Source: an uncultured bacterium
GTDB lineage: Bacteria > Edwardsbacteria > AC1 > EtOH8
Assembly (NCBI GenBank): GCA_964518765.1
Contig: CAZFJC010000001.1
Coordinates: forward strand, 11,595-75,594
DNA: 64,000 bases
Direction: 5' to 3'
The notes under the pieces are model-generated. The model worked only from the letters and a program-made list of their open reading frames with translations, was not told where the DNA came from and searched no databases. Position 1 is the first letter of the stretch. Each line of letters begins with the position of its first letter. The position numbers were made by a program, and so were the translations under genes. Shown here one piece after another: positions 27,089 to 54,892 of the stretch.

Positions 27089-28798
27089 ATGCGCAAAGTA
27101 GAGGACAAGATCAACCGGGCGCTGGGCAGGGAGCCGGTGGACCTGCTGTTGAAGAACGCCCAACTGGTCAACGTCATCTCGGGTGAGATATACAAAACGA
27201 ACCTGGCGGCGGTCGACGGGCGGATCGTAGGCTTCGGGGAATACGAGAGCCACCGGACGGTGGACTTAGAGGGATCCTACCTGGCCCCCAGCTTCATCGA
27301 CGGCCACATCCACATCGAGAGCTCGATGCTGACGGTGACCGAGTTCGCCCGGGCGGTGGTGCCGCTGGGGACCGGGGCGGTCATCGCCGACCCCCACGAG
27401 TTCGCCAACGTCCTGGGCATGGACGGCATCCGCTACGTGCTGGAGGAGCGCGAGGGACTGCCCCTGGACGTCTTTGTGATGCTGCCCTCGTGCGTGCCGG
27501 CCACCGACCTGGAGACCAGCGGCGCCCGGCTTTCGGCCTACGACCTCCACCTGCTGGTCAGCGAGCCGAGGGTGGTGGGGGTGGGAGAGATGATGAACTA
27601 CCCCGGGGTGCTTTTCGCCGACAAGGACATCCTCAATAAGCTCCACGTGGGCCGGGACAAGCAGATCGACGGCCACGCCCCGGGCCTGACCGGCAAGGCC
27701 CTCAACGCCTATGTTCTGGCCGGTCCGCGCTCCGACCACGAGTGCATCGGTCTGGAGGAGGCCAGGGAGAAGCTGAGGCTGGGGATGCACATCCACCTGC
27801 GCCAGGGATCGTCGGAGAAGAACATGGCCGCCCTGCTGCCGCTGATCAACCCGCAGAACTCCCGCAACTTCAGCTTCGTCACCGATGACCGGCACCCGGC
27901 CTCGCTCATCAGCGAGGGGCACATCGACAACAACGTCCGGATCGCCATCGCCGCCGGGGTGGACCCGGTGACCGCCATCCAGATCGCCACCATCAACACC
28001 GCCCGCTTCTACCGCCTTAAGAACGTGGGGGCCCTGCTGCCGCGCTACTGGGCGGATATGGTGGTCTTCGACGACCTGCACGACGTCAGGCCGCGGATGG
28101 TCTTCAAAAAGGGCGAGCTGGTGGCCCAGGACGGCAAGGCCCTGTTTCAGGCGCAGGACATCGACCATACCTACATCCGGGGCACCATGAACGTCCAGTG
28201 GCTTTATGAGTCCACCTTCGCCGTGCCGGCCAAAGGCGAGCGGATAAGGATCATGCAGATGGTTCCCGGCCAGATCGTCACCCGGCATATCAGCGATCAG
28301 GCCAAGGTGGTGGACGGCCTGGCTGTGTCCGACACCGAGCGGGATATCATCAAGTTTGCCGTCATCGAGCGGCATCGGGCGGCCAAGAACGTGGGGCTGG
28401 GTTTCGTCCGCGGCTTTGGCATCAAGCGAGGGGCACTCGCCTCCTCGGTGGCTCACGATAGCCACAACCTGGGGGTGCTGGGGGCCAACGACGCCGACAT
28501 GCTTAAGGCCGCCATCAGGGTGATCGAGATGGGCGGGGGGCAGGCGGTGGTGGCCGACGGCCAGGTGCTGGCCGAGCTGGCCCTGCCGGTGGCCGGCCTG
28601 GTGAGCGACCAGAACCTGGAACACGTATCGCAAAGGGTGAGGGAGCTGAACCAAGCGGCCAAAGACGTGGGCTGCATACTGCCGGACCCGTTCGCGGCCT
28701 TAAGCTTTCTACCTTTGGTGCCCATTCCCGAGCTCAGGCTGACCGATAAAGGTTTGGTTGATGCCAAGGAATTTAAGCTTATTGACTTATTTTATTAA
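27089..28798 (+). CDS. ade: Adenine deaminase.
   Basis: SFIDGHIHIESSML ... amidohydrolase metal-binding motifs; length about 570 aa. Confidence 0.8.
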   Translation: MRKVEDKINRALGREPVDLLLKNAQLVNVISGEIYKTNLAAVDGRIVGFGEYESHRTVDLEGSYLAPSFIDGHIHIESSMLTVTEFARAVVPLGTGAVIADPHEFANVLGMDGIRYVLEEREGLPLDVFVMLPSCVPATDLETSGARLSAYDLHLLVSEPRVVGVGEMMNYPGVLFADKDILNKLHVGRDKQIDGHAPGLTGKALNAYVLAGPRSDHECIGLEEAREKLRLGMHIHLRQGSSEKNMAALLPLINPQNSRNFSFVTDDRHPASLISEGHIDNNVRIAIAAGVDPVTAIQIATINTARFYRLKNVGALLPRYWADMVVFDDLHDVRPRMVFKKGELVAQDGKALFQAQDIDHTYIRGTMNVQWLYESTFAVPAKGERIRIMQMVPGQIVTRHISDQAKVVDGLAVSDTERDIIKFAVIERHRAAKNVGLGFVRGFGIKRGALASSVAHDSHNLGVLGANDADMLKAAIRVIEMGGGQAVVADGQVLAELALPVAGLVSDQNLEHVSQRVRELNQAAKDVGCILPDPFAALSFLPLVPIPELRLTDKGLVDAKEFKLIDLFY

Positions 28799-28861
28799 TT
28801 TCTTAATTATCAAAGTATTATAATATATCATAAAACCATTGCTTTAAATAAATTATAGCTA

Positions 28862-30385
28862 ATGAAAAGCATTAAAATAAGCTTTTACCTTAATGATCAT
28901 GCCGTAACCTATCAGATCGAGCCCGGACAGACGGCCCTGGACCTGATCAGGAACGGTTTGGGTCTCACCGGGACCAAGGAGGGGTGTTCCGAAGGCGATT
29001 GCGGAGCCTGCACCGTGGCCCTGGGAACCATGGAGAATGGGCGGCTGGCCTACCGGGCGGTTGCCTCCTGCATTCTGCCGGCAGCCAAGCTGCATGGCCG
29101 ACATGTCATAACCATCGAGGGATTGGCCCGAGGTGATAAACTGCACCCCATCCAGCAGGCGGTGCTGGAGGAGCACGCCACCCAGTGCGGGTTCTGCACG
29201 CCGGGGATCGTCATGTCTCTCTTCTGCCTCTTCGCCGGGAATACCAGACCAACGGTCGAGGAGCTGAACGCCTCGCTGGAGGGAAACCTCTGCCGGTGCA
29301 CTGGGTACGACTCCATCAGGAAGGCGGCGCTGCGAGTCTCCGATAATTTGGCAAATAAGCTTCTCTCATGCAGCAGGGATATACTGCCTACCTATATAAA
29401 AATGGTAGAAAGGGGGTTAAAGAAAGCAGGCGAGTGCCAAGCGAATGGGTCGGAGACGGCCGATAGGGCAGGGATTTCGGAGTACCATCAGCCTGAGACG
29501 CTACCCCAGCTGTTCGCCGTATTGAGGAAATTCAGGTCCTGCAATCAGTACCGGCTAATCTCCGGCGGCACCGATGTCATGGTAGATCGAAACATAAAGA
29601 AGATCTATCCGGAGCACTTGGTCGACATCTCCGGCATTCAGTCTCTAAGAGGCATTAAGGTGGCCGGCAAGGCCATGTCCATCGGCGCCAACGTCACCCT
29701 TTCGAAGCTGGTTGAGAGCCCGGTGGTCAGGCGTCGGCTTCCGGTCCTGGCCCAAACAGTCGCGCAGATGGCCTCGGCCCAGATACGCAATACCGCCACC
29801 CTGGCCGGCAATCTGGCCAACGCCTCGCCCATCGCCGACGGCAGCGTCCTGATGCTGGCCCTGGGGGCCAGGCTGAAACTGGTATCGCCCAGGGGCTCCC
29901 GGACCGTGTCCATCGACGATTTCTATAAATCCTACCGCCATACCTGCCTGGGGGAGCGCGAGATTATTGCTAGGATCGAGGTGCCCATGGACGGCTCATT
30001 GTGCAGCTTCATCAAGAGCGCCAAGCGCAGGTCGGTGGACATCTCCACGGTAAACTCGGCCGTCAAGCTGAAATTATCAAAGGGTCGGATAACTGAAACC
30101 CGCATCGCCCTGGGCGGCGTTGCCCCGACGCCGGTGTTGGCTCTGAAGGCCGCGGCCAGCCTGGCCGGCAAGGGGTTGACAGAGGAAACGATCGTCAGGA
30201 CCGCCGACATGGCCGCCTCCGAATGCACGCCCATCAGCGACGTCCGCGGCGGGGCGGATTACAGAAAGATGCTGGTGAGGAACCACGTGCTCAGGCATCT
30301 GAGAAGCATAGCGTTGAACCTAACCCCAAATCCCGCTGCCTCGAGGGAAGGGGAAGCCAGGGTTAGATCGGGGGAAAACAGATGA
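28862..30385 (+). CDS. Molybdenum hydroxylase small/medium subunit fusion: [2Fe-2S] ferredoxin domain plus FAD-binding (CoxM/XdhA-like) domain.
   Basis: CSEGDCGACTV ... QCGFCTPG ... CRCTGY iron-sulfur motifs, then GGTD FAD-binding and a CO-dehydrogenase-flavoprotein-like C-terminus. Confidence 0.8.
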   Translation: MKSIKISFYLNDHAVTYQIEPGQTALDLIRNGLGLTGTKEGCSEGDCGACTVALGTMENGRLAYRAVASCILPAAKLHGRHVITIEGLARGDKLHPIQQAVLEEHATQCGFCTPGIVMSLFCLFAGNTRPTVEELNASLEGNLCRCTGYDSIRKAALRVSDNLANKLLSCSRDILPTYIKMVERGLKKAGECQANGSETADRAGISEYHQPETLPQLFAVLRKFRSCNQYRLISGGTDVMVDRNIKKIYPEHLVDISGIQSLRGIKVAGKAMSIGANVTLSKLVESPVVRRRLPVLAQTVAQMASAQIRNTATLAGNLANASPIADGSVLMLALGARLKLVSPRGSRTVSIDDFYKSYRHTCLGEREIIARIEVPMDGSLCSFIKSAKRRSVDISTVNSAVKLKLSKGRITETRIALGGVAPTPVLALKAAASLAGKGLTEETIVRTADMAASECTPISDVRGGADYRKMLVRNHVLRHLRSIALNLTPNPAASREGEARVRSGENR

Positions 30386-32676
30386 AGCCGGAACCCTTCC
30401 ATATCGCCGGGCCCCTGCACGTCACCGGCCGGTCCCGCTTCGTGACGGACGAGCCCAGGCCCGAGGGGATGTGTTTCCTAAAAATATTTTCCAGCCCCCA
30501 TGCCCGGGCCAGGATACTGAGACTGGACACCTCGGAGGCCGAAAGGGCACCGGGCATCCTCGGCGTATTCACCCACCGGGACATCCCCGGCCATAACCAG
30601 ATAGGCCACGCCGCGCTCGATGAGCCGCTGTTCCCGGTCGAGGAGACGGCCTTCTTCGGGCAGCCGATGGCTATCGTCGCCGGCGAAACCGAGGAGGCGG
30701 CCGAGCGGGGGATAAATCTCATCAAGGCCGAGTTTCAGGAGCTGAAGCCGGTGCTGTCAGTCGAAAAGGCCTTAGCTAGAGGGCTTCTTTATGCGCCGGA
30801 GCGCCGCATTGAGGCCGGCGATGTGGAGAGGGGGTTTGCCGAGTCCGAGCACATTCTCGAGGGCAGAATGGAGACCGGGGCCCAGGAGCACGTCTACCTG
30901 GAGACCCAGGCCTGCCGGGCCGTCCCGGGCGAGGATGGCGAGGTCATCCTATACAGCGCCACCCAAAGTACGGCCGAGGTTCAGGAAGTGGCGGCCCGGA
31001 TTCTGGGGGTGGATCGGAAGGACGTGACGGTGGACGTGCGCCGGCTGGGAGGTGCCTTCGGAGGCAAGGAGCGGGCGGCTACCATCTGGGCTTGCCTGGC
31101 GGCGCTGGCCTGCTACAAGCTGAGGAGGCCGGTGGAGCTGTCGCTGTCGCGCCTGGAGGATATGTCTTGGACAGGCAAAAGGCACCCGTACGTCATCAAA
31201 TACCGGGCCGGTTTCGGCGGCGACGGTAGGATCAAAGCGCTTTCGATGGAACTGAACTCCAACGGCGGAGCCTACACCGACCTATCCATGGCCATTCTGG
31301 AGCGCTCCATGCTCCATGCCGACAACGCCTATTTCATCCCCAACGCCAGGATAATAGGCCGGGCCTGCCGGACCAACCTGCCCCCCAACACCGCCTTTCG
31401 GGGCTTTGGGGCGCCCCAGGGGATATTCGCCATCGAATACGTGATGGAAGGGATCGCCCGAAAGCTCGGTCTGGACCCGCTGGAGGTCCGCAAACGCAAC
31501 TCCTATGCCGAGGGGCAGCCTACGCCCTACGGCCAGCCGGTCCATGAAGCGGCGGTAACCGAGATGCTCGAGAGGTTGGAAAAGAAATCGAGGTATCAGG
31601 ACCTTCGGAAAAGCGTGGAGGAATTCAACCTGAACAACTCGGAGCTAAGGCGCGGCATCGGAGTGGTGCCGGTCAAGTTCGGCATCTCGTTCACCTCGGC
31701 CTTCCTTAACCAGGGCTCGGCCCTGGTCCTGGTCTACGGCGACGGAACAGTTTCGCTGTCCCACGGCGGCATCGAGATGGGCCAGGAGGTGAACACCAAG
31801 GTTGCCCAAGTGGTGTCCCGAGAGCTGGGGGTGGGGCTGGAAAGCATCAGGGTGGAGACTTCGAACACCAAGCGCACCGCCAACGCCTCACCTACCGCCG
31901 CCTCGACCGGGGCCGATATCAACGGCCACGCCGCTAGAGATGCGGCCAGTCAGATCAGGGAGCGGCTGGCGCCGGTGGCGGCCGAGATGCTGTCGAAAAA
32001 ATGGGGAACGAGTTTCCCTGCCAACGGGATAGTGTTCGAGGATGACAGAGTGTTCTCCAGGGATAACCCCGAGAAATCGATATCCTTCGGCGAGCTGGCC
32101 CACCAGGCTTACATGGACAGGATCGACCTCTGCGCCCACGGATTCTACGCCACCCCCGGGGTGTATTTCGACCGGGAGAGGGGGAAGGGGAATCCCTTTT
32201 ACTACTTCGTGTTCGGCAGTTGTCTGGTCGTGGCCGAGGTGGACGTGATGACTGGCGCCAGCCGTTTGGTCGAAGTCCACATAGTACACGAAACGGCCAA
32301 GAGCCTGAACCGGGCCATCGATCGGGGACAGATAGAGGGGGCCTTCATCCAGGGCTACGGCTGGTGCACCATGGAGGAGATCAGGTGGGACGACAAGGGG
32401 CGCTACCTAGCGGTGACGCCGTCCACCTACAAGATACCAACCATCCGCGACCTACCGGAGGTCTTCGATATCGAGATGGTGGAAACTAAAAGGAAGCACG
32501 CCAGCGTTTTTGGTTCCAAAGCCATTGGAGAGCCACCGCTCATCTACGGCGAGGCCGCCTGGTTCGCCGTCAAGGAAGCCATCGAGTCGCTTTCGGGGCA
32601 TAGGAAGGTGGCCGACCTGGCGCACCCAGCTACGCCCGAGGCGGTGCTGGCAGCTATCTGGAGAATGCGCTCTTGA
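30382..32676 (+). CDS. Xanthine dehydrogenase/aldehyde oxidase family molybdopterin-binding large subunit.
   Basis: The roughly 760-aa MoCo-binding subunit pattern: GGAFGGK, E-x-x-W catalytic-region motifs, and GEPPLIYGEAA near the C-terminus. Confidence 0.85.
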   Translation: MKPEPFHIAGPLHVTGRSRFVTDEPRPEGMCFLKIFSSPHARARILRLDTSEAERAPGILGVFTHRDIPGHNQIGHAALDEPLFPVEETAFFGQPMAIVAGETEEAAERGINLIKAEFQELKPVLSVEKALARGLLYAPERRIEAGDVERGFAESEHILEGRMETGAQEHVYLETQACRAVPGEDGEVILYSATQSTAEVQEVAARILGVDRKDVTVDVRRLGGAFGGKERAATIWACLAALACYKLRRPVELSLSRLEDMSWTGKRHPYVIKYRAGFGGDGRIKALSMELNSNGGAYTDLSMAILERSMLHADNAYFIPNARIIGRACRTNLPPNTAFRGFGAPQGIFAIEYVMEGIARKLGLDPLEVRKRNSYAEGQPTPYGQPVHEAAVTEMLERLEKKSRYQDLRKSVEEFNLNNSELRRGIGVVPVKFGISFTSAFLNQGSALVLVYGDGTVSLSHGGIEMGQEVNTKVAQVVSRELGVGLESIRVETSNTKRTANASPTAASTGADINGHAARDAASQIRERLAPVAAEMLSKKWGTSFPANGIVFEDDRVFSRDNPEKSISFGELAHQAYMDRIDLCAHGFYATPGVYFDRERGKGNPFYYFVFGSCLVVAEVDVMTGASRLVEVHIVHETAKSLNRAIDRGQIEGAFIQGYGWCTMEEIRWDDKGRYLAVTPSTYKIPTIRDLPEVFDIEMVETKRKHASVFGSKAIGEPPLIYGEAAWFAVKEAIESLSGHRKVADLAHPATPEAVLAAIWRMRS

Positions 32677-32696
32677 AGCAAATCTCCTGACGAAGA

Positions 32697-32722: not shown

Positions 32723-32813
32723 TTTACCCTTGATATTGATTTGGTGTTGTGATAAAATAAAAAACTATTAAATTACTGATTCAATTAAACTTACCGCAAC
32801 GGAAAGCCGCCGA

Positions 32814-35429
32814 ATGAACCAGTACGACTTTAAAACCATAGAGAAAAAGTGGCAGGCGACCTGGGACCGGGAGAAGACCTTCCGAGTGACGGAGGACACC
32901 TCTGTCCCCAGGGAGAAGCGGGCCTACTGCCTGGAGATGTTCCCCTACCCCTCGGGCAAGGGCCTGCACGTGGGGCACCTCAAGAACTACATCCCCGTCG
33001 ACGCCTACTGCCGCTTCCGCAGCATGCAGGGCTTCGCCGTCCTGCACCCCATGGGGTGGGACGCCTTTGGACAGCCGGCGGAGAACGAGGCCCTGGACAA
33101 GGGGCGCAATCCGCGGGAGATGGTGCCAGAGTATGCCGCCAGCTACAAGCGAACACTTAAGCTGGCCGGCTGCAGTTACGACTGGGATCGGGAGATAAAC
33201 TCCAGTCTGCCGGACTATTATAAATGGACCCAGTGGTTCTTCCTTCTCCTGTACAAAAAGGGCCTGGCCTATCGGGCGACCTCGCCTATCAACTGGTGCC
33301 CCTCTTGCAAGACCGGTCTGGCCAACGAGGAAGTCAAGGAGGGACGCTGCTGGCGTTGCGGCACCCTGGTAGAGAAGAAGCCCATGCCGCAGTGGTTCTT
33401 TAGGATCACGGCCTACGCCGACCGCCTGCTGGCCGACCTGGACAAGCTGGACTGGTCTGAGGGTATGAAGGAGATGCAGCGGGACTGGATAGGAAGAAGC
33501 GAAGGAGCAACGGTAAAATTCAAAATTCATAATTCAAATTCCCAAATAGAAGTATATACGACCAGGCCGGACACGCTCTTCGGGGCCACCTTCATGGTGT
33601 TGGCGCCCGAGCACCCATTGGTCGGGGAGATCACTTCCCCGGAGAGACGGGCGGAAGTCGAGGCCTACGTCAAAAAGGTCCAGGGCGAGAACGAGATAGA
33701 ACGCATGGCCGCCGACCGTAACAAGACGGGCGTGTTCACCGGGGCCCAAGCCGTCAATCCGGTCAACGGCCAGAGGATCCCGGTGTGGATAGCTGACTAT
33801 GTCCTCATGGGCTACGGGACCGGGGCCATCATGTCAGTGCCGGGCCATGACCAGCGGGATTTCGAGTTTGCCCAGAAGTATGGGCTGCCCATTATCCAGG
33901 TTGTAAGCAGGGATGGGACCAAATACGAGCTTTCTAGGGCCGAGCCGGACGAGGGTATAGCCGTCAACTCCGGCCAGTACGACGGCCTGACGACCTCTGA
34001 GTTCAAGAAGGCGGTCACCGAATGGCTGGAGGAGAAGGGGCTGGGAAAGCATGCGGTCAACTACCGGCTACGCGACTGGCTGATATCTCGCCAGCGGTAC
34101 TGGGGGGCTCCCATACCCGTGATCCATTGCGAAAAATGCGGGGAGGTCCCGGTTCCGGAAAAAGACCTGCCGGTGCTGCTGCCCGAAGTCAAGAACTACA
34201 GGCCCACCGGCACCGGCGAGTCGCCTCTGGCCGCCATACCGGAATTCGTCAGGGCCCCTTGCCCCAAGTGCGGCGGCCAGGCCCGGAGGGAGACAGACAC
34301 CATGGGCGGCTACGCCTGCTCCTCTTGGTATTTCTTCCGCTTTACCGACCCTCGAAACGAAAAGGAGTTTGCCTCAAGGAAGGCCATCGATTACTGGATG
34401 CCGGTGGACCTCTATGCTGGGGGCATCGAGCACGCCCGATCGCATTTGCTCTACGCCCGCTTCTGGACTAAGGTGCTCTACGACGAGGGGCTGGTGGGCT
34501 TCGAGGAGCCTTTTTTAAGGCTCAAGAACCAGGGATCGCTGCTGGCCTACACCCCTGGCCGCAGGCCGAAGTCCGAGGGCGATGGGACGGCCGACGAGGA
34601 CCGGATCGTGGACTGGATTGTGCTCAGGCCCGAGGAGCGGGAGGCCTATCCCAAGGACCAGGTGATCTGGCGCTGGGCCAGGATGTCCAAGTCCAAGGGC
34701 AACGTGGTGACGCCTGACGAGATCGCCGAGCGCTACGGGGCCGACTCCCTGCGCGTCTATGAGATGTTCGTGGCCCCTTACGAGGACGACGTTCAGTGGA
34801 CCGAGGAGGGCATCCACGGGTCGTTCCGCTTTGTGGTCCGGGTGTGGCGCTGGCTGCAGGCGGCCCTGCCGTTGTATAAGAATGACTGGAGGGCCGGTCT
34901 GCCCCAGAAGCCGACGGCAGACGAAAAGGCGGTTAGGCGCAAGCTGCACCAGACCATCCGCAAGGTGGGTTCGGACATCGCCGGCTTCCAGTTCAACACC
35001 GCCGTGGCCGCCCTGATGGAGCTGCTTAACTCGATATATGATTACGCCCCCATCAAAAACGAGGCTTTGGGCCAGGGGCTTAACCCGAACGTTGTCTCCG
35101 AGATCGCCCAGTCGCTAGTGTTGATGATGGCGCCGCTTACCCCCCATCTGGGCGAGGAGGTCTGGAGCCAGATGGGGAACAAGAGAACGGTTTACAGGGC
35201 GCCCTGGCCGGAATGCGACGAGAGGGCTGCGGCCGAAGACGAGATCACCATCGCCGTTCAGGTCAACGGCAAGCTGAGGGACACCATCTGCATGCCGGCC
35301 GGCTCTGGGGAGGAGGCCATCAAAAAAGCGGCCCTGGACAGATCCAAGGCGGCCGAACACATCAGGGGTAAGCAGGTCGTCAAAGTAGTAGTGGTGCCCG
35401 GCAAGCTGGTAAACATAGTGGTTAAGTAG
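32814..35429 (+). CDS. leuS: Leucyl-tRNA synthetase.
   Basis: HVGH (HIGH) motif and KMSKSKGN (KMSKS) motif; 871 aa. Confidence 0.95.
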   Translation: MNQYDFKTIEKKWQATWDREKTFRVTEDTSVPREKRAYCLEMFPYPSGKGLHVGHLKNYIPVDAYCRFRSMQGFAVLHPMGWDAFGQPAENEALDKGRNPREMVPEYAASYKRTLKLAGCSYDWDREINSSLPDYYKWTQWFFLLLYKKGLAYRATSPINWCPSCKTGLANEEVKEGRCWRCGTLVEKKPMPQWFFRITAYADRLLADLDKLDWSEGMKEMQRDWIGRSEGATVKFKIHNSNSQIEVYTTRPDTLFGATFMVLAPEHPLVGEITSPERRAEVEAYVKKVQGENEIERMAADRNKTGVFTGAQAVNPVNGQRIPVWIADYVLMGYGTGAIMSVPGHDQRDFEFAQKYGLPIIQVVSRDGTKYELSRAEPDEGIAVNSGQYDGLTTSEFKKAVTEWLEEKGLGKHAVNYRLRDWLISRQRYWGAPIPVIHCEKCGEVPVPEKDLPVLLPEVKNYRPTGTGESPLAAIPEFVRAPCPKCGGQARRETDTMGGYACSSWYFFRFTDPRNEKEFASRKAIDYWMPVDLYAGGIEHARSHLLYARFWTKVLYDEGLVGFEEPFLRLKNQGSLLAYTPGRRPKSEGDGTADEDRIVDWIVLRPEEREAYPKDQVIWRWARMSKSKGNVVTPDEIAERYGADSLRVYEMFVAPYEDDVQWTEEGIHGSFRFVVRVWRWLQAALPLYKNDWRAGLPQKPTADEKAVRRKLHQTIRKVGSDIAGFQFNTAVAALMELLNSIYDYAPIKNEALGQGLNPNVVSEIAQSLVLMMAPLTPHLGEEVWSQMGNKRTVYRAPWPECDERAAAEDEITIAVQVNGKLRDTICMPAGSGEEAIKKAALDRSKAAEHIRGKQVVKVVVVPGKLVNIVVK

Positions 35430-35439
35430 ATAAACCCAG

Positions 35440-37932
35440 ATGAACCCACGAAACTGTGTCTTCCTCACCGATGCCCAGCTCAAATCCGAGCTGGAGAAGT
35501 GCGAGTTCTGCGAGGAGAAGCCCTGCCAGGCTGCCTGCCCCTGCGGCTGTTCGCCGGCCGATTTCATCATGGCGGCCAGGGTGGGCGCCAAATCCGACAT
35601 CAAGCGGGCGGCGGCCCTGATCATGGGCGCCAATCCCCTGGGCGGGGTATGCGGGGCGGTCTGCCCGGACCGGCACTGCATGAAGGCCTGTGTCCGGGCC
35701 ACCTTCGACCATCCGGTCAATATACCGGCCGTCCAGGCCACCATCATCCAGAAGGCCAAAGAGCTGGGGGTGATGCCGGTCTTCAGGCCTGGAAAGACGA
35801 AAAGGCAGAAGGTAGCGGTGGTTGGGGCCGGACCGGCCGGGCTGGCCGCGGCTGGCCTATTGGCGCAGATGGGCTATCCGGTTCAAGTGTTCGAGGAATT
35901 TTCGGAGCCCGGCGGCGCCTGTTGCCTTATACCCGAATTCAGGCTCGACCCCGGGGTGCTGAAGACAGATCTTGAATGGCTGAGGGGGCTGGGAGACGTC
36001 AAGTTCAAGTACGGAGCCAGGGCCGAAAAGCCTGAAGGGCTTATGGCCAAAGGATTCGACGCGGTCATCGTCGCCGGCGGACTTACCAAGCCCATCAGGC
36101 TTAGCGTCAAGGGCGAGGACCTGGCGGTGCCGGCAAGGGAGTTCCTCCGCTACTACATGAGGCGGCGGGCCCGCGGCAAGAGGGTGGCAGTCATCGGCGG
36201 CGGGGCGGTGGCGGCCGACTGCGCCGAGACGGCCGTGGCCGACGGGGCATCACAGGTAGAGCTTTTCATGCTGGAGAAGCCCTCGGAGATGCCTTTGTCG
36301 AAAAAGGAGATGGAGAGCCTAATGGGCTCAGGCGTCCAGCTTAACGGTCGGATGCGTCTCAAACGGGTATTGGCGAAGGGCAAAAAAGTGGCCGGCATCC
36401 GCACCATCCGCGTTCGATTGCCAAGGGGCAAGAAGTTCCACCCCTCCCTGGTGGAGGATGTCAAGGGGACTAAAATGGACAGCGCCTTTGATATAGTGGT
36501 GATGGCTATCGGCTCGCGGCCGGGCATCGAAAAGTCCGACAGGGTGGGAGTGTTTTGGGCCGGGGACATGGTCAACGGTCCGACGACCGTGGTGGAGGCG
36601 GTAGCGGCCGGTAAAAATGCGGCCTTGGAGCTTGACACCTGGCTCTCCAAAGGGGAGACCCTAAAGGCCGAGAAGCCGACTAAAAGCGTCGTGGTTTTGC
36701 CGGGCCGGAAACTGCTTCCGGTCCCGCTGGAAACCGATTTCTTCGGCAGGGAGATCCTCTCGCCGTTCCTGCTCTCGGCCGCGCCGCCCACCGACGGCTA
36801 CGAACAGATGAAGAAGGCATACCAGGCAGGCTGGCCGGGCGGGGTGATGAAGACCGCCTTCGATAACGTTCCGGTGCACATCCCCGGCGAGTATATGTTC
36901 GCCTTTTCACGGGACACCTACGCTAACTGCGACAACGTCTCCGGACATTCGTTGGAGCGGGTCTGCAGCGAGATCGCCAGACTGGTCAAGGAGTTTCCCG
37001 ACCGGTTGACCATAGCCTCCACCGGCGGACCGGTCACCGGACGCGATGAGGAGGACAGGAAGGTTTGGCAGTCCAACACCAGGAAGCTGGAGAGCGCCGG
37101 GGCCATGGCTGTCGAATACTCGCTCTCATGCCCCCAGGGCGGCGACGGCACTAAGGGTGACATCGTTTCCCAGGATCCGGAGCTGACGGCCAAGATAATC
37201 GGCTGGGTGATGGAGGTCTCGCATCCTGGCATTCCCAAGCTGTTCAAGCTGACGTCGGCGGTGACCTCGATCTATCCCATCATAGGCGCCATCAGACAAG
37301 TGTTCGCCAAATATCCGGACAAGAAGTCGGGCGTCACCTTGGCCAACACCTTCCCGGCTATGGCCTTCCGTCGGGGCGCCAAGAAATCCTGGGAGGAGGG
37401 AATAGTTGTCGGCATGTCGGGGGCGGGGGTGGCGCCCATATCTAACCTGACGCTGGCCAACGTCTCCAATCTTGGGATTATCGTTTCCGGCAACGGCGGA
37501 CCCATGGACTATAAGGCCGCGGCCGACTTCCTGGCCCTGGGGGCGCGCACCGTGCAGTTCTGCACCATCGTCATGAAATACGGCTACGGGATAATAGACG
37601 AGCTGCACTCCGGCCTTTCTTTCATGATGGAATCGCGCGGTATAAAATCGGTCGAGAAGCTGATCGGCTATGCCCTGCCCGATCCGATCACCGCCTTCAT
37701 GGAACTGAGCCCGGAGAAAAAGATCTCGGACGTGGACCGCGACCTGTGCCAGCACTGCGGCAACTGCACCCGCTGCCCCTATCTGGCCATCACCCTGGAC
37801 GAGGAGAAAATCCCCAAGACCGACGCCTCCAAGTGCCTCGGCTGCTCGATCTGCGTCCAGAAGTGCTTCTCCGGGGCACTTTTCATGAGGGAGAGGACGA
37901 AGAAGGAGAAAGCATTGTTAAATGAGCGCTGA
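35440..37932 (+). CDS. Dihydropyrimidine-dehydrogenase-like tri-domain oxidoreductase (PreT-like FAD/NAD domain, PreA/DHOD-like TIM barrel, ferredoxin); YgfK-like.
   Basis: N-terminal Cys cluster (CEFCEEKPCQAACPCGC); VAVVGAGPAGLAAA dinucleotide fold; second Rossmann (VAVIGGGAVA); C-terminal CQHCGNCTRCPY ... CLGCSICVQKC. Confidence 0.7.
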   Translation: MNPRNCVFLTDAQLKSELEKCEFCEEKPCQAACPCGCSPADFIMAARVGAKSDIKRAAALIMGANPLGGVCGAVCPDRHCMKACVRATFDHPVNIPAVQATIIQKAKELGVMPVFRPGKTKRQKVAVVGAGPAGLAAAGLLAQMGYPVQVFEEFSEPGGACCLIPEFRLDPGVLKTDLEWLRGLGDVKFKYGARAEKPEGLMAKGFDAVIVAGGLTKPIRLSVKGEDLAVPAREFLRYYMRRRARGKRVAVIGGGAVAADCAETAVADGASQVELFMLEKPSEMPLSKKEMESLMGSGVQLNGRMRLKRVLAKGKKVAGIRTIRVRLPRGKKFHPSLVEDVKGTKMDSAFDIVVMAIGSRPGIEKSDRVGVFWAGDMVNGPTTVVEAVAAGKNAALELDTWLSKGETLKAEKPTKSVVVLPGRKLLPVPLETDFFGREILSPFLLSAAPPTDGYEQMKKAYQAGWPGGVMKTAFDNVPVHIPGEYMFAFSRDTYANCDNVSGHSLERVCSEIARLVKEFPDRLTIASTGGPVTGRDEEDRKVWQSNTRKLESAGAMAVEYSLSCPQGGDGTKGDIVSQDPELTAKIIGWVMEVSHPGIPKLFKLTSAVTSIYPIIGAIRQVFAKYPDKKSGVTLANTFPAMAFRRGAKKSWEEGIVVGMSGAGVAPISNLTLANVSNLGIIVSGNGGPMDYKAAADFLALGARTVQFCTIVMKYGYGIIDELHSGLSFMMESRGIKSVEKLIGYALPDPITAFMELSPEKKISDVDRDLCQHCGNCTRCPYLAITLDEEKIPKTDASKCLGCSICVQKCFSGALFMRERTKKEKALLNER

Positions 37933-47945: not shown

Positions 47946-47955
47946 GAGAAAACCA

Positions 47956-49292: not shown

Positions 49293-49301
49293 CGTCGTGG
49301 C

Positions 49302-50437
49302 ATGAAGTGGTCCCCGGATAGTGTTCGCTTCGACCGCAATGAGCTCTCCGGCGCCTTCGGCGATATCGGAACCGATCTGCCGCTGCTGGTGGGCATGGTT
49401 GCCGCCTGCGGCTGGACTCGGCCAGCACGCTGGTGATGTTCGGCCTTATGCAGGTCTTCACTGGCCTATGTTACGGTTTGCCGATGCCGGTTCAGCCCCT
49501 GAAGGCCATGGCGGCCCTGATGATCGCCCGGAAACTTCCGGCGGCCACCCTATACGGGGCCGGGCTATCCATCGGAACCTTGATGCTCCTGCTGACGCTG
49601 ACCGGCACTTTGGAATGGCTGGCCCGGGTCATACCAAAGTCAGTGGTGAGGGGGATTCAGTTCGGGCTGGGACTTTCCCTGGCCAAGATAGCGGCCAGCA
49701 ACTACGTTTTAGCGGAGTCGTGGCCGGGTTACCTCCTGGCGGCGGCGAGCTTTGCCATCGTCGCCGTATTTATGGGGAACCGACGTTTGCCGCCGGCACT
49801 GCTGGTGATCCTTTTAGGGGTTTTATATGCCCTGGTTTTCAGAATGGACCCAGCCGCCCTGGGCCAAGGCATCGGCGTGTCACTGCCTCGGATAAACTTG
49901 ATAAGGTGGCCCGACATCATGACCGGATTCTTGGCCCTGGCGCTACCGCAGATACCCCTGTCCATAGCCAATTCAGTGGTGGCCACTAATCAGACTCTGG
50001 GAGATCTTTTCCCCGATAGGAAGGTTGGCATCAGAAGGATAGGCCTCAGCTATTCGCTGATGAACCTGGTTAACGCCTGGCTGTCCGGGGTGCCCACCTG
50101 CCACGGTACCGGCGGTCTGGCCGGGCACTAAGCTTTCGGGGCGCGCACCGGAGGATCGGTGGTTATTTGCGGGTCCATGTACCTGGCCCTGGGTCTCTTT
50201 TTTCCCAGATCATTTGGCGAGGCCGTCAAGGCTTTCCCCATGCCAGTACTCGGGGTCATCCTTTTATTCGAATCACTGGCGCTAATGATGTTCGTGCGCG
50301 ATATCGCCGCCGACAGCCGGGGGCTGTTCATCGCCTTGCTGGTAGCGCTGTCGTACCTGGCCCTGCCGAACGGTTACGTGATCGGAATTATTCTGGGAAG
50401 CGCGCTGCACTATCTGCCTTTGATCTTTAAACACTGA
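49302..50437 (+). pseudogene. MOT-family (PF16983-like) molybdate/oxoanion transporter gene disrupted by a -1 frameshift near 49412 and an in-frame TAA at 50129-50131.
   Basis: N-terminus FDRNELSGAFGDIGTDLPLLVGM (frame 0) continues as LDSASTLVMFGLMQVF ... PMPVQPLKAMAA only in another frame. Later GTGGLAGH-TAA-AFGARTGGSVV reads through the family's conserved GGLAG-x-Y-x-FGARTGG block if TAA replaces Tyr. Confidence 0.55.
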
Positions 50438-50452
50438 TTCGAGGGAATCCTT

Positions 50453-51649
50453 ATGAGCCTGACGAAGGTAGACCGGATCCTGGTTTCCCTAAAGAGGCTT
50501 AAGGCCAACATGAAGGGTCGGGACTTCCTGCTGACGTGGGAGCAAAGCATCGATGAGATCAAGGCCGTGGCCCTGGTGGCCGAAGCGATGCAGGATCTGC
50601 ACCGGCAGGGGCGGAGCCTGAGGATTTTCGACTCCGGCCTGGCCATCTCCATCTTCCGGGACAAGTCAACCCGTACCCGTTTCTCCTTCGCCTCGGCCGC
50701 CAATCTGTTAGGGCTGTCGGTGGCCGACCTGGACGAGGAGAAGTCGCAGATCGCTCACGGAGAGACGGTGCGGGAGACGGCCAACATGATCTCGTTTCTC
50801 ACCGAGACCATCGGCATCCGTGATGACATGTTCCTGGGCGAGGGCAACAGGTACATGAGAGAGGTGGGGGAGGCGGTGACCGAGGGCCATGAAAACGGGG
50901 TGCTGCACCAGCGGCCCAATATCATCAATCTTCAGTGCGACATCGACCACCCCACCCAGAGCATGGCCGATTTGCTGATGCTCCAGGACCACTTCGGCGG
51001 CTTCGAAAAAATGAGGGGGAGGAAGATCGCCATGACCTGGGCTTACTCCCCCAGCTACGGCAAGCCGCTCTCGGTGCCCCAGGGCATCATCGGCCTGATG
51101 ACCCGGTTCGGCATGGAGGTGGTGCTGGCGCATCCCCCAGGCTACGGTCTGTTGCCGGATGTTCTTGAAGTGGCCAGGAGAAACGCTGCCGCCTGCCGAG
51201 GCCAGTTTCAAGTGGTCGACTCCATGGAGGAAGCCTTCAAGGACGCCGACGTGGTATATCCCAAGTCCTGGGCGCCATACAAGGTAATGGAGCGCCGCAC
51301 CGAGCTGCTGAAGAGCAACGACCGCCCGGGGCTGGCCGAATTGGAGAAGGAGTGTCTGGCCAACAACGCCAAATACACCCTTTGGGAGTGCGACGCCCGT
51401 AAGATGGCGCTGACACGCGGCGGAAAGGCCCTCTACATGCACTGCCTGCCGGCCGACATCAGTGGGGTCTCATGTAAGCAGGGAGAGGTCTCGGCCGAGG
51501 TGTTCGATAAATACCGGCTGCTGACGTACCGCCAGGCCGGATTTAAACCATTCGTCATCGCGGCCATGATATTTATAGCCAAGTTCGACAATCCGGCAAA
51601 GGCCCTGGCAAGGATAGTGAAATCAAAAAGACAGAGGTTGAAAGCTTGA
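50453..51649 (+). CDS. ygeW: YgeW-type knotted carbamoyltransferase.
   Basis: STRTRFSF carbamoyl-phosphate-binding motif and HCLP motif; about 400 aa, typical of YgeW. Confidence 0.8.
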   Translation: MSLTKVDRILVSLKRLKANMKGRDFLLTWEQSIDEIKAVALVAEAMQDLHRQGRSLRIFDSGLAISIFRDKSTRTRFSFASAANLLGLSVADLDEEKSQIAHGETVRETANMISFLTETIGIRDDMFLGEGNRYMREVGEAVTEGHENGVLHQRPNIINLQCDIDHPTQSMADLLMLQDHFGGFEKMRGRKIAMTWAYSPSYGKPLSVPQGIIGLMTRFGMEVVLAHPPGYGLLPDVLEVARRNAAACRGQFQVVDSMEEAFKDADVVYPKSWAPYKVMERRTELLKSNDRPGLAELEKECLANNAKYTLWECDARKMALTRGGKALYMHCLPADISGVSCKQGEVSAEVFDKYRLLTYRQAGFKPFVIAAMIFIAKFDNPAKALARIVKSKRQRLKA

Positions 51650-52011: not shown

Positions 52012-53469
52012 ATGTCCCGCATCATTAAGACCATGAACCATGAAGTGATAAAGCGCACCGCCCGACGTTGCCGGGAACGCAACATCATCATTCCTACCTT
52101 CGCCCAAATGAGGGACCCGACGCTGATACCCAACGCCATCAGGACGAAGCTGAAGGGGGTAGGGCTGTGGGATGTCAATCCTCTCAACCTCTTCCGCATC
52201 ACCTGGAAGAACGACGTCGGCACCGGACTGTTCGGCGGCGTAAACTATTTGGAGGTGCCCCGAGAGCTGACCGGAATCCGGGCTCGAGTGATCGGCTTGG
52301 TGGGCAAGTACTTCCCCACCGGAGCGCACAAGGTGGGCGCGGCCTTTGGCTGCCTGGTGCCCAGGCTGGTGAGTGGCGAGTTCGACCCCACCGTTCACAA
52401 GGCGGTGTGGCCGTCCACTGGAAATTACTGCCGCGGCGGGGCGTTCGACTGCGCCCTGTTGAACTGCACGGCCGTGGCCATCCTGCCTGAGGAGATGTCT
52501 CAGGAGAGGTTCGACTGGCTTCGCCAAATAGGCGCCGAGGTCATCGCCACCCCGGGCTGCGAATCCAACGTCAAGGAGATCTACGACAAGTGCCACGAGC
52601 TGCGGACCGATCCGCGCCACGTGATCTTCAACCAGTTCGACGAATTCGGCAATCCCATCTGGCACTACCATGTCACCGGACCAGCCATCCAGGAGGTGTT
52701 CGAGGGGATGAAGGACGATAAGCTGCGGGCCGCGGCCTACATCTCTGCCACGGGATCGGCCGGGACCATCGCTGCCGGCGACTACCTGAGAAAGCTGCAT
52801 CCGCATATTAGGGTGGTAGCCACCGAGGCCCTACAGTGCCCCACCCTTTTCCTCAACGGATTCGGCGGCCACCGTATCGAAGGGATCGGCGATAAGCACG
52901 TGCCCTGGGTGCACAACGTTCGCAACACCGACGCCGTGGCCGCCATCGACGACGAGGACTGCATGAGGGTTCTCAGGCTCTTCAATGAGCCGGCGGGACG
53001 TGAATATATCAGGTCTTTGGGGATATCCGAGGACGCCGCCACAAAAGTGCCGCTGCTGGGGATCTCGTCGATATGCAACCTGCTGTCCGCCATCAAGGCC
53101 GCTAGGTACTACGAGCTAAACGAGCGGGATGTGATCTTCACCGTATTTACCGATTCCATGGAGCTGTACCAGTCGCGGATACAAGAGCAGAAGGAGATAA
53201 AGGGCGACTACGATAGGATGCAGGCGGCCCGCGACTATGAGGGGGCAATAGCCCACCTGCGCGACGACTGGTTCCGCGAGCTTAACTACCGGGAGCGGAA
53301 ACAGATCCACAACCTTAAATATTACACCTGGGTGGAGCAGCAGGGCAAGACCTACGAGGAGATATTGGCGCAATGGGATCCCGAATACTGGAGGCAGATA
53401 TTCGAGGACGAGGTGGGATATTTCGATCGGTTGATCAAGGAATTCAACACCCAGGTGGGCCTCGAGTAA
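52012..53469 (+). CDS. PLP-dependent fold-type-II enzyme (YgeX/diaminopropionate-ammonia-lyase-like or cysteine-synthase-like) with a long C-terminal extension.
   Basis: FPTGAHKVGAAFG lysine context and a glycine-rich loop (SATGSAGT). Confidence 0.55.
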   Translation: MSRIIKTMNHEVIKRTARRCRERNIIIPTFAQMRDPTLIPNAIRTKLKGVGLWDVNPLNLFRITWKNDVGTGLFGGVNYLEVPRELTGIRARVIGLVGKYFPTGAHKVGAAFGCLVPRLVSGEFDPTVHKAVWPSTGNYCRGGAFDCALLNCTAVAILPEEMSQERFDWLRQIGAEVIATPGCESNVKEIYDKCHELRTDPRHVIFNQFDEFGNPIWHYHVTGPAIQEVFEGMKDDKLRAAAYISATGSAGTIAAGDYLRKLHPHIRVVATEALQCPTLFLNGFGGHRIEGIGDKHVPWVHNVRNTDAVAAIDDEDCMRVLRLFNEPAGREYIRSLGISEDAATKVPLLGISSICNLLSAIKAARYYELNERDVIFTVFTDSMELYQSRIQEQKEIKGDYDRMQAARDYEGAIAHLRDDWFRELNYRERKQIHNLKYYTWVEQQGKTYEEILAQWDPEYWRQIFEDEVGYFDRLIKEFNTQVGLE

Positions 53470-53514
53470 AACTAGCTGCCTTCCTTGCCTCAAGGCGGTG
53501 GATAGGATAAAGTC

Positions 53515-54123
53515 ATGGCGAAGAAACTCGCGGCCGTCATCCTGGCAGCGGGAAAGGGGAGAAGGATAGGGCATCCCAAGTTATTCCTGGAGCTGGGCGG
53601 GGTGCCCTTCTGGAGACTGATATCTGGAAGGCTGAGGAAAGCCGGTATAAGGGATATGGTGGTGGTCGTCAGAAGGTCTCAAAAGGGCTCGGTTGATAAA
53701 GATAAAGAAAGGCTGGTGAGGGTAGCAGTCAACAGGAATCCGTCCTGGGGCATGTTCTCGTCAATCCAATGCGGCCTGCGGGCGATGAAAGGGTTTGACG
53801 GGTATCTTCTATGCCCGGTTGACCATCCCGGCGTCAAGGTGCGGACCTATGAGAAACTCCACCAGGGTTTTCAAAAAAATCCAGAGGCCGTGGCCAGGCC
53901 GATTTTCCAGGGGAAAAGGGGTCACCCCATCGTCATTCCGAAAAATTTGGCCGACCGCCTGCTTAACAGCAATCCCAGCAACAGATTGGACTATTTGATC
54001 CAGAGAATGGGATGGCCACTGATCGATATTAAGGTAAAAGATAAATATATAATATTCAACATCAATACATATAAAGAGTTAGAAATTGCAGGAAAACATC
54101 TTAGATCTATTATATGCCGCTAA
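53515..54123 (+). CDS. mocA: Molybdenum cofactor cytidylyltransferase (MocA/MobA-like NTP transferase).
   Basis: AVILAAGKGRRIG nucleotide-binding motif; about 200 aa. Confidence 0.7.
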   Translation: MAKKLAAVILAAGKGRRIGHPKLFLELGGVPFWRLISGRLRKAGIRDMVVVVRRSQKGSVDKDKERLVRVAVNRNPSWGMFSSIQCGLRAMKGFDGYLLCPVDHPGVKVRTYEKLHQGFQKNPEAVARPIFQGKRGHPIVIPKNLADRLLNSNPSNRLDYLIQRMGWPLIDIKVKDKYIIFNINTYKELEIAGKHLRSIICR

Positions 54124-54892
54124 AAGGGATAACAGGAAGCTTTGGTTGGTGACCGTGATTTCCACCCAGGGCTCGACCCCGGGAAAGCCAGGGATGAAAA
54201 TGGTGGTATATCCGGACGGAACCACGGCCGGGACCATAGGCGGCGGCCAGGTGGAGAGGGAGGTCATCGCCGAGGTGATGGAAAAACGTTATCCGGTACT
54301 GACGAAACGCCAATATCAGATGGGCGGGGACTTCGGAGAAAAAGGCGGCATGGCCTGTGGCGGAGCCCAGGAGTTGATCATCGAGCCGTTGGGGACGGCC
54401 ACCCCCCTCTACATCATAGGGGCCGGGCATTGCGCCGTGGAGCTCTCGGCCCTGGCCGGCCGTTGCGGTTTTGCGGTGACGGTGATCGACGATCGTCCGG
54501 AGTGGGCCAACAGGGAAAAACATCCGCAGGCCCATACTTCCATCTGCCAGGGATACTCGGACCTGGAAAAGCACATTGCATTCTCGGAAGATGCTTTCAT
54601 TGTCATCATGACCCACCAGCATCTTCATGACGAGGAAGCGCTCAGGTACTGCATCCGCAGGAAGTGGCGCTATCTGGGCATGATCGGCAGCCGACGCAAG
54701 GTCGGACTTCTCTTCGACAAGCTGGCCGCGGAGGGAGTGGAACCCTCTGTTCTGGGCCGTGTCCGCGCTCCCATAGGTTTGGACATCGGATCGGAGACGC
54801 CGGCCGAGATAGCGGTTAGCATCGCCGCTCAGCTGATCGAGGTGAGAAACGGCAGAAAGGGATATGCGGCGGCCAGGTCTGAGGCGTCTTGA
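54086..54892 (+). CDS. xdhC: XdhC/CoxI-family molybdenum hydroxylase accessory protein (TTG start, overlaps mocA).
   Basis: N-terminal XdhC domain (WLVTVISTQGSTPGKPGMKMVV) and Rossmann-like C-terminal domain (LYIIGAGHCAVELSALA). Confidence 0.7.
   Translation: MQENILDLLYAAKRDNRKLWLVTVISTQGSTPGKPGMKMVVYPDGTTAGTIGGGQVEREVIAEVMEKRYPVLTKRQYQMGGDFGEKGGMACGGAQELIIEPLGTATPLYIIGAGHCAVELSALAGRCGFAVTVIDDRPEWANREKHPQAHTSICQGYSDLEKHIAFSEDAFIVIMTHQHLHDEEALRYCIRRKWRYLGMIGSRRKVGLLFDKLAAEGVEPSVLGRVRAPIGLDIGSETPAEIAVSIAAQLIEVRNGRKGYAAARSEAS

Follow-up and report, generated by a model that had tools for sequence, protein, structure and literature searches.

Results

A purine-catabolic gene set on one strand

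The sequence studied here is a 64-kb window of DNA from an uncultured bacterium, and its positions 27089-54892 hold a gene cluster that we examined as a candidate locus for anaerobic purine catabolism. The listing of open reading frames (ORFs), together with NCBIfam and Pfam scans, revealed a purine-catabolic gene set running in one direction on the + strand over these positions, and the initial annotation of this DNA was right in calling its genes co-directional. Every gene that it named exists, and their grouping goes far beyond chance. Its list omitted, however, five genes that interrupt the cluster (leuS and the genes for a peptidase, a hypothetical protein, a nitroreductase, and a MOT1-family transporter), and the stretch is not a single unbroken operon. 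The genes of the set are listed below (DPD, dihydropyrimidine dehydrogenase; PLP, pyridoxal phosphate; XDH, xanthine dehydrogenase; CBS, cystathionine beta-synthase).

27089..28798, + strand: adenine deaminase (adenine to hypoxanthine; feeder step); TIGR01178, 595 bits vs a cut-off of 472.5
28862..30385, + strand: XdhA-type small subunit of a canonical xanthine dehydrogenase (2Fe-2S + FAD); TIGR02963, 407 bits, cut-off 467
30382..32676, + strand: XdhB-type molybdopterin subunit of the canonical xanthine dehydrogenase; TIGR02965, 866 bits vs a cut-off of 849.5
35440..37932, + strand: single-chain DPD-type (PreT+PreA-like) Fe-S flavoprotein, 830 aa; alignment to pig DPD
37985..39322, + strand: SsnA amidohydrolase; NF005540, 552 vs 444 bits; TIGR03314, 524 vs 455.5 bits
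39338..40555, + strand: YgeY M20 hydrolase; NF009555, 539 vs 321 bits; TIGR03526 model passed
40561..41775, + strand: threonine-synthase-like (ThrC-like) PLP enzyme with an N-terminal CxxC...CxxC zinc ribbon; matches to class-I threonine synthases in the PDB
41772..43103, + strand: HyuA-like cyclic amidohydrolase; TIGR02033, 317 bits, cut-off 393
43100..45373, + strand: molybdopterin subunit of a second XDH-family enzyme (Mo2); no NCBIfam cut-off reached
45367..45828, + strand: 2x[2Fe-2S] subunit of the second hydroxylase (FeS2); Fer2 and Fer2_2 domains
50453..51649, + strand: YgeW knotted carbamoyltransferase; NF005538, 659 vs 453 bits; TIGR03316 model passed
52012..53469, + strand: CysK/CBS-like PLP enzyme, 485 aa; CysK model, 101 vs 351 bits
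53515..54123, + strand: MocA-like molybdenum-cofactor cytidylyltransferase; PF12804; TIGR03310, 104 bits, cut-off 186; DVU_1551-family, 127 bits
54086..54892, + strand: XdhC-family molybdenum-cofactor insertion chaperone, 268 aa; PF02625 and PF13478

Adenine deaminase, XdhB, SsnA, YgeY, and YgeW passed the cut-offs of their NCBIfam equivalog models, and the hydrolases did not turn out to belong to non-purine pathways. The initial annotation had likened the neighborhood both to the E. coli ygeW-ygfM region and to clostridial purine fermentation. The first likeness holds, as seen in the SsnA, YgeY, and YgeW equivalogs, but the second does not, since the classical Rabinowitz purine pathway relies on other genes (PMC12990295).

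The gene order recurs across phyla

We scanned for related loci using SsnA as the seed and one genome per species, which gave 80 loci, with tblastn searches using window proteins and E. coli reference proteins. An independent metagenome scan was seeded with the CysK-like protein, and the co-occurrence counts given below span 160 loci. The window SsnA was found exactly, with the same neighbors, on two independent Logan contigs, and its nearest relatives were a Candidatus Edwardsiibacteriota metagenome-assembled genome (MAG) and a UBP2 MAG, in which SsnA is 83-84% identical and the range over SsnA and YgeY is 83-85%. Elusimicrobia came next by SsnA identity (72-75%), followed by more distant SsnA loci in Ignavibacteria, Cloacimonadota, Acidobacteriota/Holophagae, Verrucomicrobiota, KSB1, and Bacteroidota.

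At least 8 phyla share the operon order, with little space between the genes. In about 20 long MAG loci, which come from Ignavibacteria, Acidobacteriota, Bacteroidota, Cloacimonadota, KSB1, and Verrucomicrobiota, the recurring order, [xdhA-xdhB]-reductase-ssnA-ygeY-PLP(ThrC-like)-hyuA-Mo2-FeS2-ygeW-PLP(CysK-like)-(mocA), is tightly packed, with median intergenic gaps of 16-54 nt. HyuA holds its operon position among relatives, a MocA gene follows the CysK-like gene in 6 loci (gaps of 11-20 nt), the carbamate kinase YqeA is present in 9 of the 80 related loci, and adenine deaminase adjoins the cluster in a few relatives only. When the unassigned ORFs of the 80 SsnA loci were clustered all-vs-all, no other widely conserved neighbor emerged, the largest cluster comprising 4 loci.

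The window shows the recurring order with two insertions, leuS and a block of peptidase, hypothetical, nitroreductase, and MOT1 genes:

32814..35429, + strand: leuS (leucine-tRNA ligase), a housekeeping gene outside the pathway; TIGR00396, 1049 bits
45852-47945, + strand: oligopeptidase B-like S9 peptidase, outside the pathway
47956-48714, + strand: hypothetical 252-aa protein, outside the pathway; no Pfam or NCBIfam match
48711-49292, + strand: nitroreductase, outside the pathway
49302..50437, + strand: MOT1-family molybdate-transporter gene, disrupted; PF16983 in the repaired product

In 7 relatives, xdhB and the reductase gene lie 8-178 nt apart, without leuS between them; leuS was also found in this position on an independent Logan contig (L001). 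A sigma-70-like site with 10/12 matches and an extended TG lies upstream of leuS at 32730-32758. FeS2 and ygeW are separated by 31-430 nt in 16 other loci; among the relatives, only the closest one, UBP2_UBA4780 (L004 8484-11280, 66-69% identity), has the peptidase and the hypothetical gene after FeS2. The peptidase/hypothetical/nitroreductase block is a lineage-specific insert and not part of the pathway.

The MOT1 gene is interrupted at two points: a frameshift of 1 nt lies near 49415-49436, and a TAA stands in frame at 50129-50131. Its repaired product of 378 aa matched PF16983 twice (180 bits). The gene is probably a pseudogene or an assembly error; selenocysteine or other recoding of the stop was ruled out, since the stop is TAA and the frameshift is separate. 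Farther downstream, ygeW and the CysK-like gene are divided by a non-coding gap of 362 nt (51650-52011), compared to a median of 29 nt in relatives, in which we found no ORF of note and no Rfam match. A TTGACT...TATTAAT-like stretch near 51692-51708 is a possible internal promoter.

A fuller variant was observed in four Thermoanaerobaculia/Holophagales MAGs (L071, L077, L079, and L082), with the order ygfK-uacT-(hyuA)-ygeW-CysK-like-ssnA-yqeA-ygeX-FeS-Mo-xdhC-yqeC-yqeB. In these loci, selenium-marker genes and the CysK-like enzyme occur together with true YgfK and YgeX.

The two molybdenum enzymes differ in type

We mapped active-site residues to bovine XDH numbering using a HMMER alignment and a 48-sequence MAFFT alignment. 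The residues at bovine positions 767/802/880/914/1009/1010/1261 are as follows:

Window XdhB and orthologs: Q/E/R/F/F/T/E, identical to bovine XDH
Mo2 clade, 24 orthologs: Q/D/R/F/L/G/E, with Ile at 1009 in one
Molybdenum enzymes of YgfK-type loci: Q/E/R/F/I/G/E
E. coli XdhD: Q/Q/N/Y/I/P/E

The small-subunit domains of XdhA align with E. coli XdhC (40% identity) and XdhB (31%), and by its family matches the first hydroxylase is assigned to the ordinary XdhAB type (TIGR02965) with an XdhC chaperone. Mo2 scored best against the XdhA_XDHase model (488 bits vs 780), followed by Se_dep_XDH (TIGR03311; 417 vs 830) and the XdhD-type model (TIGR03313; 203 vs 1102), and the last two scores contradict the label "XdhD-like" that this subunit had been given. 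Among PDB sequences, it matched 4-hydroxybenzoyl-CoA reductase best, at 280 bits, with bovine xanthine oxidase next at 277 bits. Together, these comparisons place Mo2 in what appears to be a separate clade of the XDH family, neither XdhD nor the clostridial enzyme, the latter being set apart by description. Mo2 retains the purine-type Arg880 and Glu1261, as well as Gln767 and Phe914, but in a pocket that looks reshaped.

Mo2 and FeS2 belong to the operon core in 22 SsnA-seeded loci, whereas xdhAB is present in only 10, and the Mo2-FeS2 pair is kept in 23 loci with a median gap of 31 nt. As the initial annotation had stated, no FAD subunit adjoins the second hydroxylase in the window, which a tblastn search with E. 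coli proteins confirmed. In one Verrucomicrobia locus, a FAD-subunit gene separates the Mo gene from the FeS gene. Because Mo2 stays in operons without xdhAB, we assign urate reduction to it and predict that Mo2/FeS2 is a urate 6-dehydroxylase forming 2,8-dioxopurine. The opposite assignment, with XdhAB as the urate reductase and Mo2 as the xanthine dehydrogenase, was rejected since XdhB scores above the TIGR02965 cut-off and its active-site residues are exactly those of bovine XDH, and the constancy of Mo2 in operons lacking xdhAB also counters it. A megablast search of the second-hydroxylase genes against plasmids gave no match.

A fused DPD-type reductase pairs with SsnA

Residues 17-751 of the reductase align in one stretch to residues 75-856 of pig DPD (PDB 1GT8), and the order of domains, which is shared with pig DPD and E. 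coli PreT-PreA, is an N-terminal Fe-S domain, FAD, NADPH, an FMN barrel (PF01180), and a C-terminal 2x[4Fe-4S] domain. The DPD residues N609, C671, K709, N736, and T737 are kept, while N668 is replaced by Ser and the protein is shorter than pig DPD (830 vs 1025 aa). The motif "YSLSCPQG" is invariant among 51 reductase orthologs. On the YgfK model (TIGR03315), the reductase reached 162 bits vs 835, so the initial label "DPD/YgfK-like" holds in its first half only. We therefore class the reductase, on this alignment and these scores, as a fused PreT+PreA/DPD-type protein and not as YgfK.

The reductase and ssnA genes are paired in 52 loci, with a median gap of 28 nt. Because the reductase is always SsnA-paired within the purine operon, 2,8-dioxopurine rather than uracil is suggested as its substrate, and we predict that it acts as an NAD(P)H:2,8-dioxopurine reductase in the role of YgfK/UacX.

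Two PLP enzymes and no YgeX

The NCBIfam scans gave no diaminopropionate ammonia-lyase match, and E. coli YgeX produced only short segments of 29-39% identity in the two PLP genes. The first of these, the ThrC-like gene, encodes a protein whose best matches in the PDB are class-I threonine synthases (E ~1e-55, ~190 bits), and it passes TIGR00260 (186 vs 167 bits). It shares the fold-type II PLP core of these enzymes (PDB 2ZSJ, 6CGQ, 2D1F, and 1UIM), and its lysine motif, SGSLKDR, resembles the TGSFKDR of threonine synthase, but the N-terminal CxxC...CxxC zinc ribbon is an extra feature. The threonine synthase motif VNSVNPxRxEGQKT is replaced by NRNTAYHPLTIEGKKT in the window and by NRNTA[YF][HN]P[LF]TIEGKKT across the clade, with loss of the Asn-Ser...Arg motif of true threonine synthases, and the GNAGN loop (PVGNAGN) has become PVGDGVI. 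These replacements hold in 35 aligned sequences, save for one weak match of 27% identity. We take it that Asn154, Ser155, and Arg160 of the lost motif bind the substrate phosphate, as in the T. thermophilus structure. The ThrC-like gene lies between ygeY and hyuA in 22-28 loci, and across the 160 loci the ThrC-like enzyme was present in 61, YgeX in 7, and both in none. The ThrC-like enzyme is therefore a candidate replacement for YgeX, converting 2,3-diaminopropionate to pyruvate and ammonia.

The second PLP enzyme, encoded at 52012-53469, had been called YgeX-like, a label that its lack of a diaminopropionate ammonia-lyase match, its weak CysK matches, and its CysK/CBS-type fold do not bear out. 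This protein is 71-87% identical across phyla, is annotated at the source as "cysteine synthase" or "PLP-dependent enzyme," and has the invariant elements K107 (PTGAHK), STGN135-138, and GSAGT248-252. It does not belong to CysK/CysM: the cysK model gave 101 bits vs 351, the lysine motif is PTGAHKVG and not SVKDR, and the fold alone matches. In an AlphaFold2 model (predicted local distance difference test score, 85.5), the top Foldseek matches were CysK, beta-cyanoalanine synthase, and CBS cores, with target-normalized template-modeling scores of ~0.8, and the N- and C-terminal helical extensions had no Foldseek match. The model thus indicates a beta-substituted-alanine-synthase fold.

The CysK-like gene follows window-type YgeW in 13/13 loci with sufficient downstream sequence. 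In the metagenome scan, 24 loci had 5 kb or more of sequence on each side, and pathway genes were present in 17 of them, including YgfK-type contexts; the other 7 have no pathway gene nearby, and the one examined with Pfam (L105) sits among housekeeping genes. The CysK-like enzyme co-occurs with either the ThrC-like enzyme or YgeX. We considered it as the sole replacement of YgeX, given that its position after ygeW is that of ygeX in E. coli, and rejected this because 7 loci carry it alongside true YgeX.

Selenium markers are absent from the window

Searching the 64-kb window by tblastn with E. coli queries, we found no selD, yqeB, yqeC, or carbamate kinase gene, and the initial annotation was correct on this point. 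YqeC had no match, and YqeB matched only through the 268-aa XdhC-like gene, whose product is half the length of E. coli YqeB and 33% identical to its N-terminal half. Other loci encode an ortholog of this XdhC-family protein as a stand-alone gene next to yqeC and yqeB. Within fetched flanks of up to 10 kb, yqeB/yqeC were present in 0/22 window-type Mo2 loci, compared to 4/10 loci with the other Mo type. With these absences and an ordinary XdhAB, the description of the system as of "selenium-dependent molybdenum hydroxylase type" is unsupported, and selenium dependence cannot be claimed from the window.

The remainder of the window

The rest of the window holds housekeeping genes (der, plsY, gpsA, surE, pcm, apt, obg, dprA, mutL, miaA, a lipid A acyltransferase gene, and bamA-like genes). 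This gene content supports the diderm host proposed initially. All credible genes of the window lie on the + strand and the cumulative GC skew climbs monotonically, which suggests a long leading-strand gene array of single orientation.

Directly upstream of the cluster, at 24972-26084, lies a gene for a DUF362 protein that ends in a 2x[4Fe-4S] ferredoxin domain; it sits in a low-GC patch (0.52 vs ~0.61) and adjoins the operon in 0/80 relatives' loci. Two very large ORFs (17573-20449, 958 aa; 57702-60533, 943 aa) have TolB/PD40 beta-propeller repeats, and the former additionally matches Omp85/BamA C-terminal models, an unusual pairing of propeller and Omp85. A distinct POTRA+Omp85 protein is encoded at 60289-62295. 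The Rfam gathering scan of the entire window gave a single match, a tRNA at 10157-10232, and no purine, molybdenum-cofactor, or other riboswitch. A mechanical ORF at 10187-12334 (715 aa, no family match) begins within this tRNA, and its real start would lie further downstream.

Discussion

The E. coli ygeW-xdhD cluster and clostridial clusters were assigned in 2025 to a 2,8-dioxopurine, or reductive uric-acid, pathway (10.1101/2025.04.24.650524; 10.1101/2025.05.19.654654). In that scheme, an XDH homolog (XdhD-YgfM or XdhAC) reduces urate to 2,8-dioxopurine, YgfK, or in C. difficile the PydA-like UacX, dearomatizes the ring, SsnA forms ureidomethyl-hydantoin, and HyuA forms 2,3-diureidopropionate. 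YgeW, which yields carbamoyl phosphate that YqeA converts to ATP, and YgeY then strip the ureido groups, and YgeX turns 2,3-diaminopropionate into pyruvate. YqeA is frequently, though not always, in the cluster, and the carbamate kinase of C. sporogenes lies elsewhere in the genome (10.1101/2025.04.24.650524; 10.1101/2025.05.19.654654).

Family identities, the conserved operon and its synteny, and active-site signatures and motifs were all observed in the window and its relatives, and they make this a real, well-conserved catabolic locus that is a variant of a known pathway and not a new kind of system. We consider it likely, at a rough probability of 0.78, that the products of this locus convert purines to pyruvate anaerobically, along a route of the 2,8-dioxopurine type. 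The pathway identity is well supported because YgeW, YgeY, SsnA, and HyuA are 64%, 55%, 32%, and 34% identical to the E. coli proteins, respectively, and the published pathway allots matching families to matching steps. The positions of YgfK, XdhD, and YgeX appear to be occupied by different families, and for Mo2, the DPD-type reductase, and the ThrC-like enzyme, the proposed substrates draw on published E. coli and Clostridium biochemistry together with gene context.

Along the proposed route, adenine deaminase would convert adenine to hypoxanthine, and the canonical XdhAB would oxidize hypoxanthine through xanthine to urate. The FAD-less Mo2/FeS2 would then reductively remove the 6-oxo group of urate, giving 2,8-dioxopurine, after which the DPD-type flavoprotein would use NAD(P)H to reduce the pyrimidine ring. 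SsnA is expected to open the reduced purine ring, yielding ureidomethyl-hydantoin, and HyuA to open the hydantoin ring, yielding 2,3-diureidopropionate. YgeW, by phosphorolysis to carbamoyl phosphate, and YgeY, by hydrolysis, would each remove one ureido group to leave 2,3-diaminopropionate, which the ThrC-like PLP enzyme would split into pyruvate and ammonia. The CysK-like enzyme may act on, or next to, a YgeW-related intermediate with a free alpha-amine, such as albizziin or diaminopropionate, and MocA and XdhC would mature the molybdenum cofactor. On paper, the route from hypoxanthine is redox-neutral, with two 2-electron oxidations and two 2-electron reductions, and this balance could explain why xdhAB is joined to the operon in some lineages. 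An ATP gain would require a carbamate kinase, which is not encoded in the window.

Several observations weigh against this reading. HyuA and the XdhA small subunit score under their equivalog cut-offs, and Mo2, which is 27% identical to E. coli XdhD and 30% to XdhA, failed both TIGR03313 and TIGR03311, while its regiochemistry is read from gene context. The 64-kb window has no carbamate kinase, urate/purine permease, or regulator. The published pathway needs one PLP enzyme and the locus has two, so the terminal steps may differ. Scans for sigma-70 promoters and intrinsic terminators (25-56 kb) were at shuffle background, and operon boundaries cannot be drawn from them; co-transcription is likewise not established because unrelated genes interrupt the cluster.

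The same genes can be read in other ways. The reductase, hydantoinase-like, and M20 genes might constitute a reductive pyrimidine (uracil/thymine) pathway that merely lies beside xanthine dehydrogenase genes: the reductase has the full DPD architecture with catalytic and uracil-binding residues kept, dihydropyrimidinase is the best model for the amidohydrolase, and M20-family beta-alanine synthases exist. We regard this as highly improbable. There are 52 loci in which the reductase accompanies SsnA, the score of the M20 enzyme exceeds the YgeY equivalog cut-off, and YgeW is present; the PreA and dihydropyrimidinase cut-offs are missed, and a dedicated XDH-family enzyme lies inside the same operon. 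A second alternative concerns the metal site, where both molybdenum enzymes or the second one would carry a labile selenium ligand, as in selenium-dependent molybdenum hydroxylase (SDMH) systems, with SelD, YqeB, and YqeC encoded elsewhere. The window is only 64 kb of the genome, YgfK/YgeX-type loci in Thermoanaerobaculia and Holophagales carry yqeC-yqeB beside the molybdenum enzyme, and in the 2025 literature YqeBC and SelD are present in every gut strain with the cluster, and both the XDH and the urate-reducing enzyme of C. sporogenes need SelD. Nevertheless, a selenium ligand seems unlikely here: selD, yqeB, and yqeC are absent from the window, yqeB/yqeC do not occur in the fetched flanks (up to 10 kb) of the 22 window-type Mo2 loci, XdhAB is of the TIGR02965 type, and the Se_dep_XDH and Se_sel_red_Mo models score far under their cut-offs. 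R. capsulatus-type XdhAB uses a sulfido ligand inserted by XdhC.

Within the 2,8-dioxopurine reading, the end of the pathway could also be branched, with the CysK-like enzyme acting directly on the YgeW product that bears a free alpha-amine (albizziin), by beta-elimination or replacement to give urea or cysteine, and the ThrC-like enzyme handling diaminopropionate. This would fit the CysK-like gene directly following window-type ygeW in all 13 loci, its beta-substituted-alanine-synthase fold with the PLP lysine, Asn loop, and Gly loop intact, and its occurrence with either the ThrC-like enzyme or YgeX, which indicates that it is not simply a YgeX replacement; the literature leaves the order of ureido cleavage and its stereochemistry open. 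On the other hand, the E. coli pathway works in vitro without a CysK-like enzyme, pathway genes are lacking near 7 of the 24 well-flanked family members, and YgeY is still conserved in the operon. Altogether, a branched end is conceivable, but we hold it only tentatively.

Going beyond the 2,8-dioxopurine assignment itself, it is possible, though we would not favor it, that uncultivated anaerobes of Edwardsiibacteriota/UBP2, Elusimicrobiota, Ignavibacteria, Cloacimonadota, Acidobacteriota, Verrucomicrobiota, and others share a distinct version of the urate pathway. Such a version would combine a new, possibly selenium-independent Mo clade, a fused DPD-type reductase, and two PLP enzymes, of which the ThrC-like enzyme would be a neofunctionalized replacement of YgeX and the CysK-like enzyme a step absent from the E. 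coli/Clostridium scheme. Candidates for that step might be beta-elimination or replacement on albizziin, or the handling of D/L stereochemistry.

It was only in 2025 that the anaerobic urate pathway was worked out, for gut Bacillota and for E. coli, and the ~100 related environmental loci together with the window suggest that outside the gut it is commonly built from different parts. The literature leaves open in which order the ureido groups are cleaved and with what stereochemistry, what donates electrons to the molybdenum enzyme, and whether selenium is required, and the locus offers concrete candidates for a selenium-independent urate reductase in a Mo clade not accompanied by yqeB/yqeC. 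Neither the ThrC-like nor the CysK-like enzyme is mentioned in the two pathway papers, one of which took PF00291 as its YgeX marker (10.1101/2025.04.24.650524; 10.1101/2025.05.19.654654). Used as a stand-in for YgeX in neighborhood surveys, PF00291 lumps three different enzymes, and the current labels "threonine synthase" and "cysteine synthase" for the two PLP enzymes amount to a systematic annotation error. Both conserved PLP enzymes and the Mo clade merit biochemical study.

Comparison with described purine loci

The SDMH neighborhood of Haft & Self (2008), defined by TIGR03309-03316, TIGR03526, and TIGR03528, overlaps with the window in the SsnA, YgeY, and YgeW models, which are passed. 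The window fails TIGR03315 (YgfK), TIGR03313 (XdhD), TIGR03311 (Se_dep_XDH), TIGR03312 (YgfM), and TIGR03310 (MocA), and unlike that neighborhood it has no YqeB, YqeC, YgeX, or SelD.

The clostridial clusters comprise XdhAC/DOPDH and YgfK/DOPOR in C. sporogenes and XdhD, UacX, and UacY in C. difficile. By description, the clostridial urate-reducing molybdenum enzyme likewise lacks a FAD subunit, and C. difficile UacX is also a PydA/DPD homolog (PF01180), like the window reductase. However, clostridial XdhAC joins its Fe-S and Mo domains in one selenium-dependent protein, whereas the window has separate genes in the order Mo-then-FeS. UacX, again compared by description, is without the FAD/NADPH module that is fused in the window reductase, as in mammalian DPD.

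Compared to the E. coli ygeW-xdhD cluster (Li et al. 2025; Liu et al. 2025), the window has a DPD-type reductase (830 aa) where E. coli has YgfK (1032 aa), two extra PLP enzymes, and a canonical R. capsulatus-type XdhAB in place of the E. coli XdhABC type. It has no YgeX, YqeA, YqeB, YqeC, YgeV regulator, or UacT/XanQ permease. The molybdenum enzyme that corresponds to XdhD is split into Mo and FeS subunits without the YgfM FAD subunit, and its active site reads Q-D-R-F-L-G-E as opposed to Q-Q-N-Y-I-P-E in XdhD. On the other hand, SsnA, YgeY, YgeW, and HyuA are homologous in the two clusters, which also share an XDH-family molybdenum enzyme, a reductase adjacent to SsnA, MocA, an XdhC-family protein, and an overall logic that leads from urate through a C3 amino acid to pyruvate.

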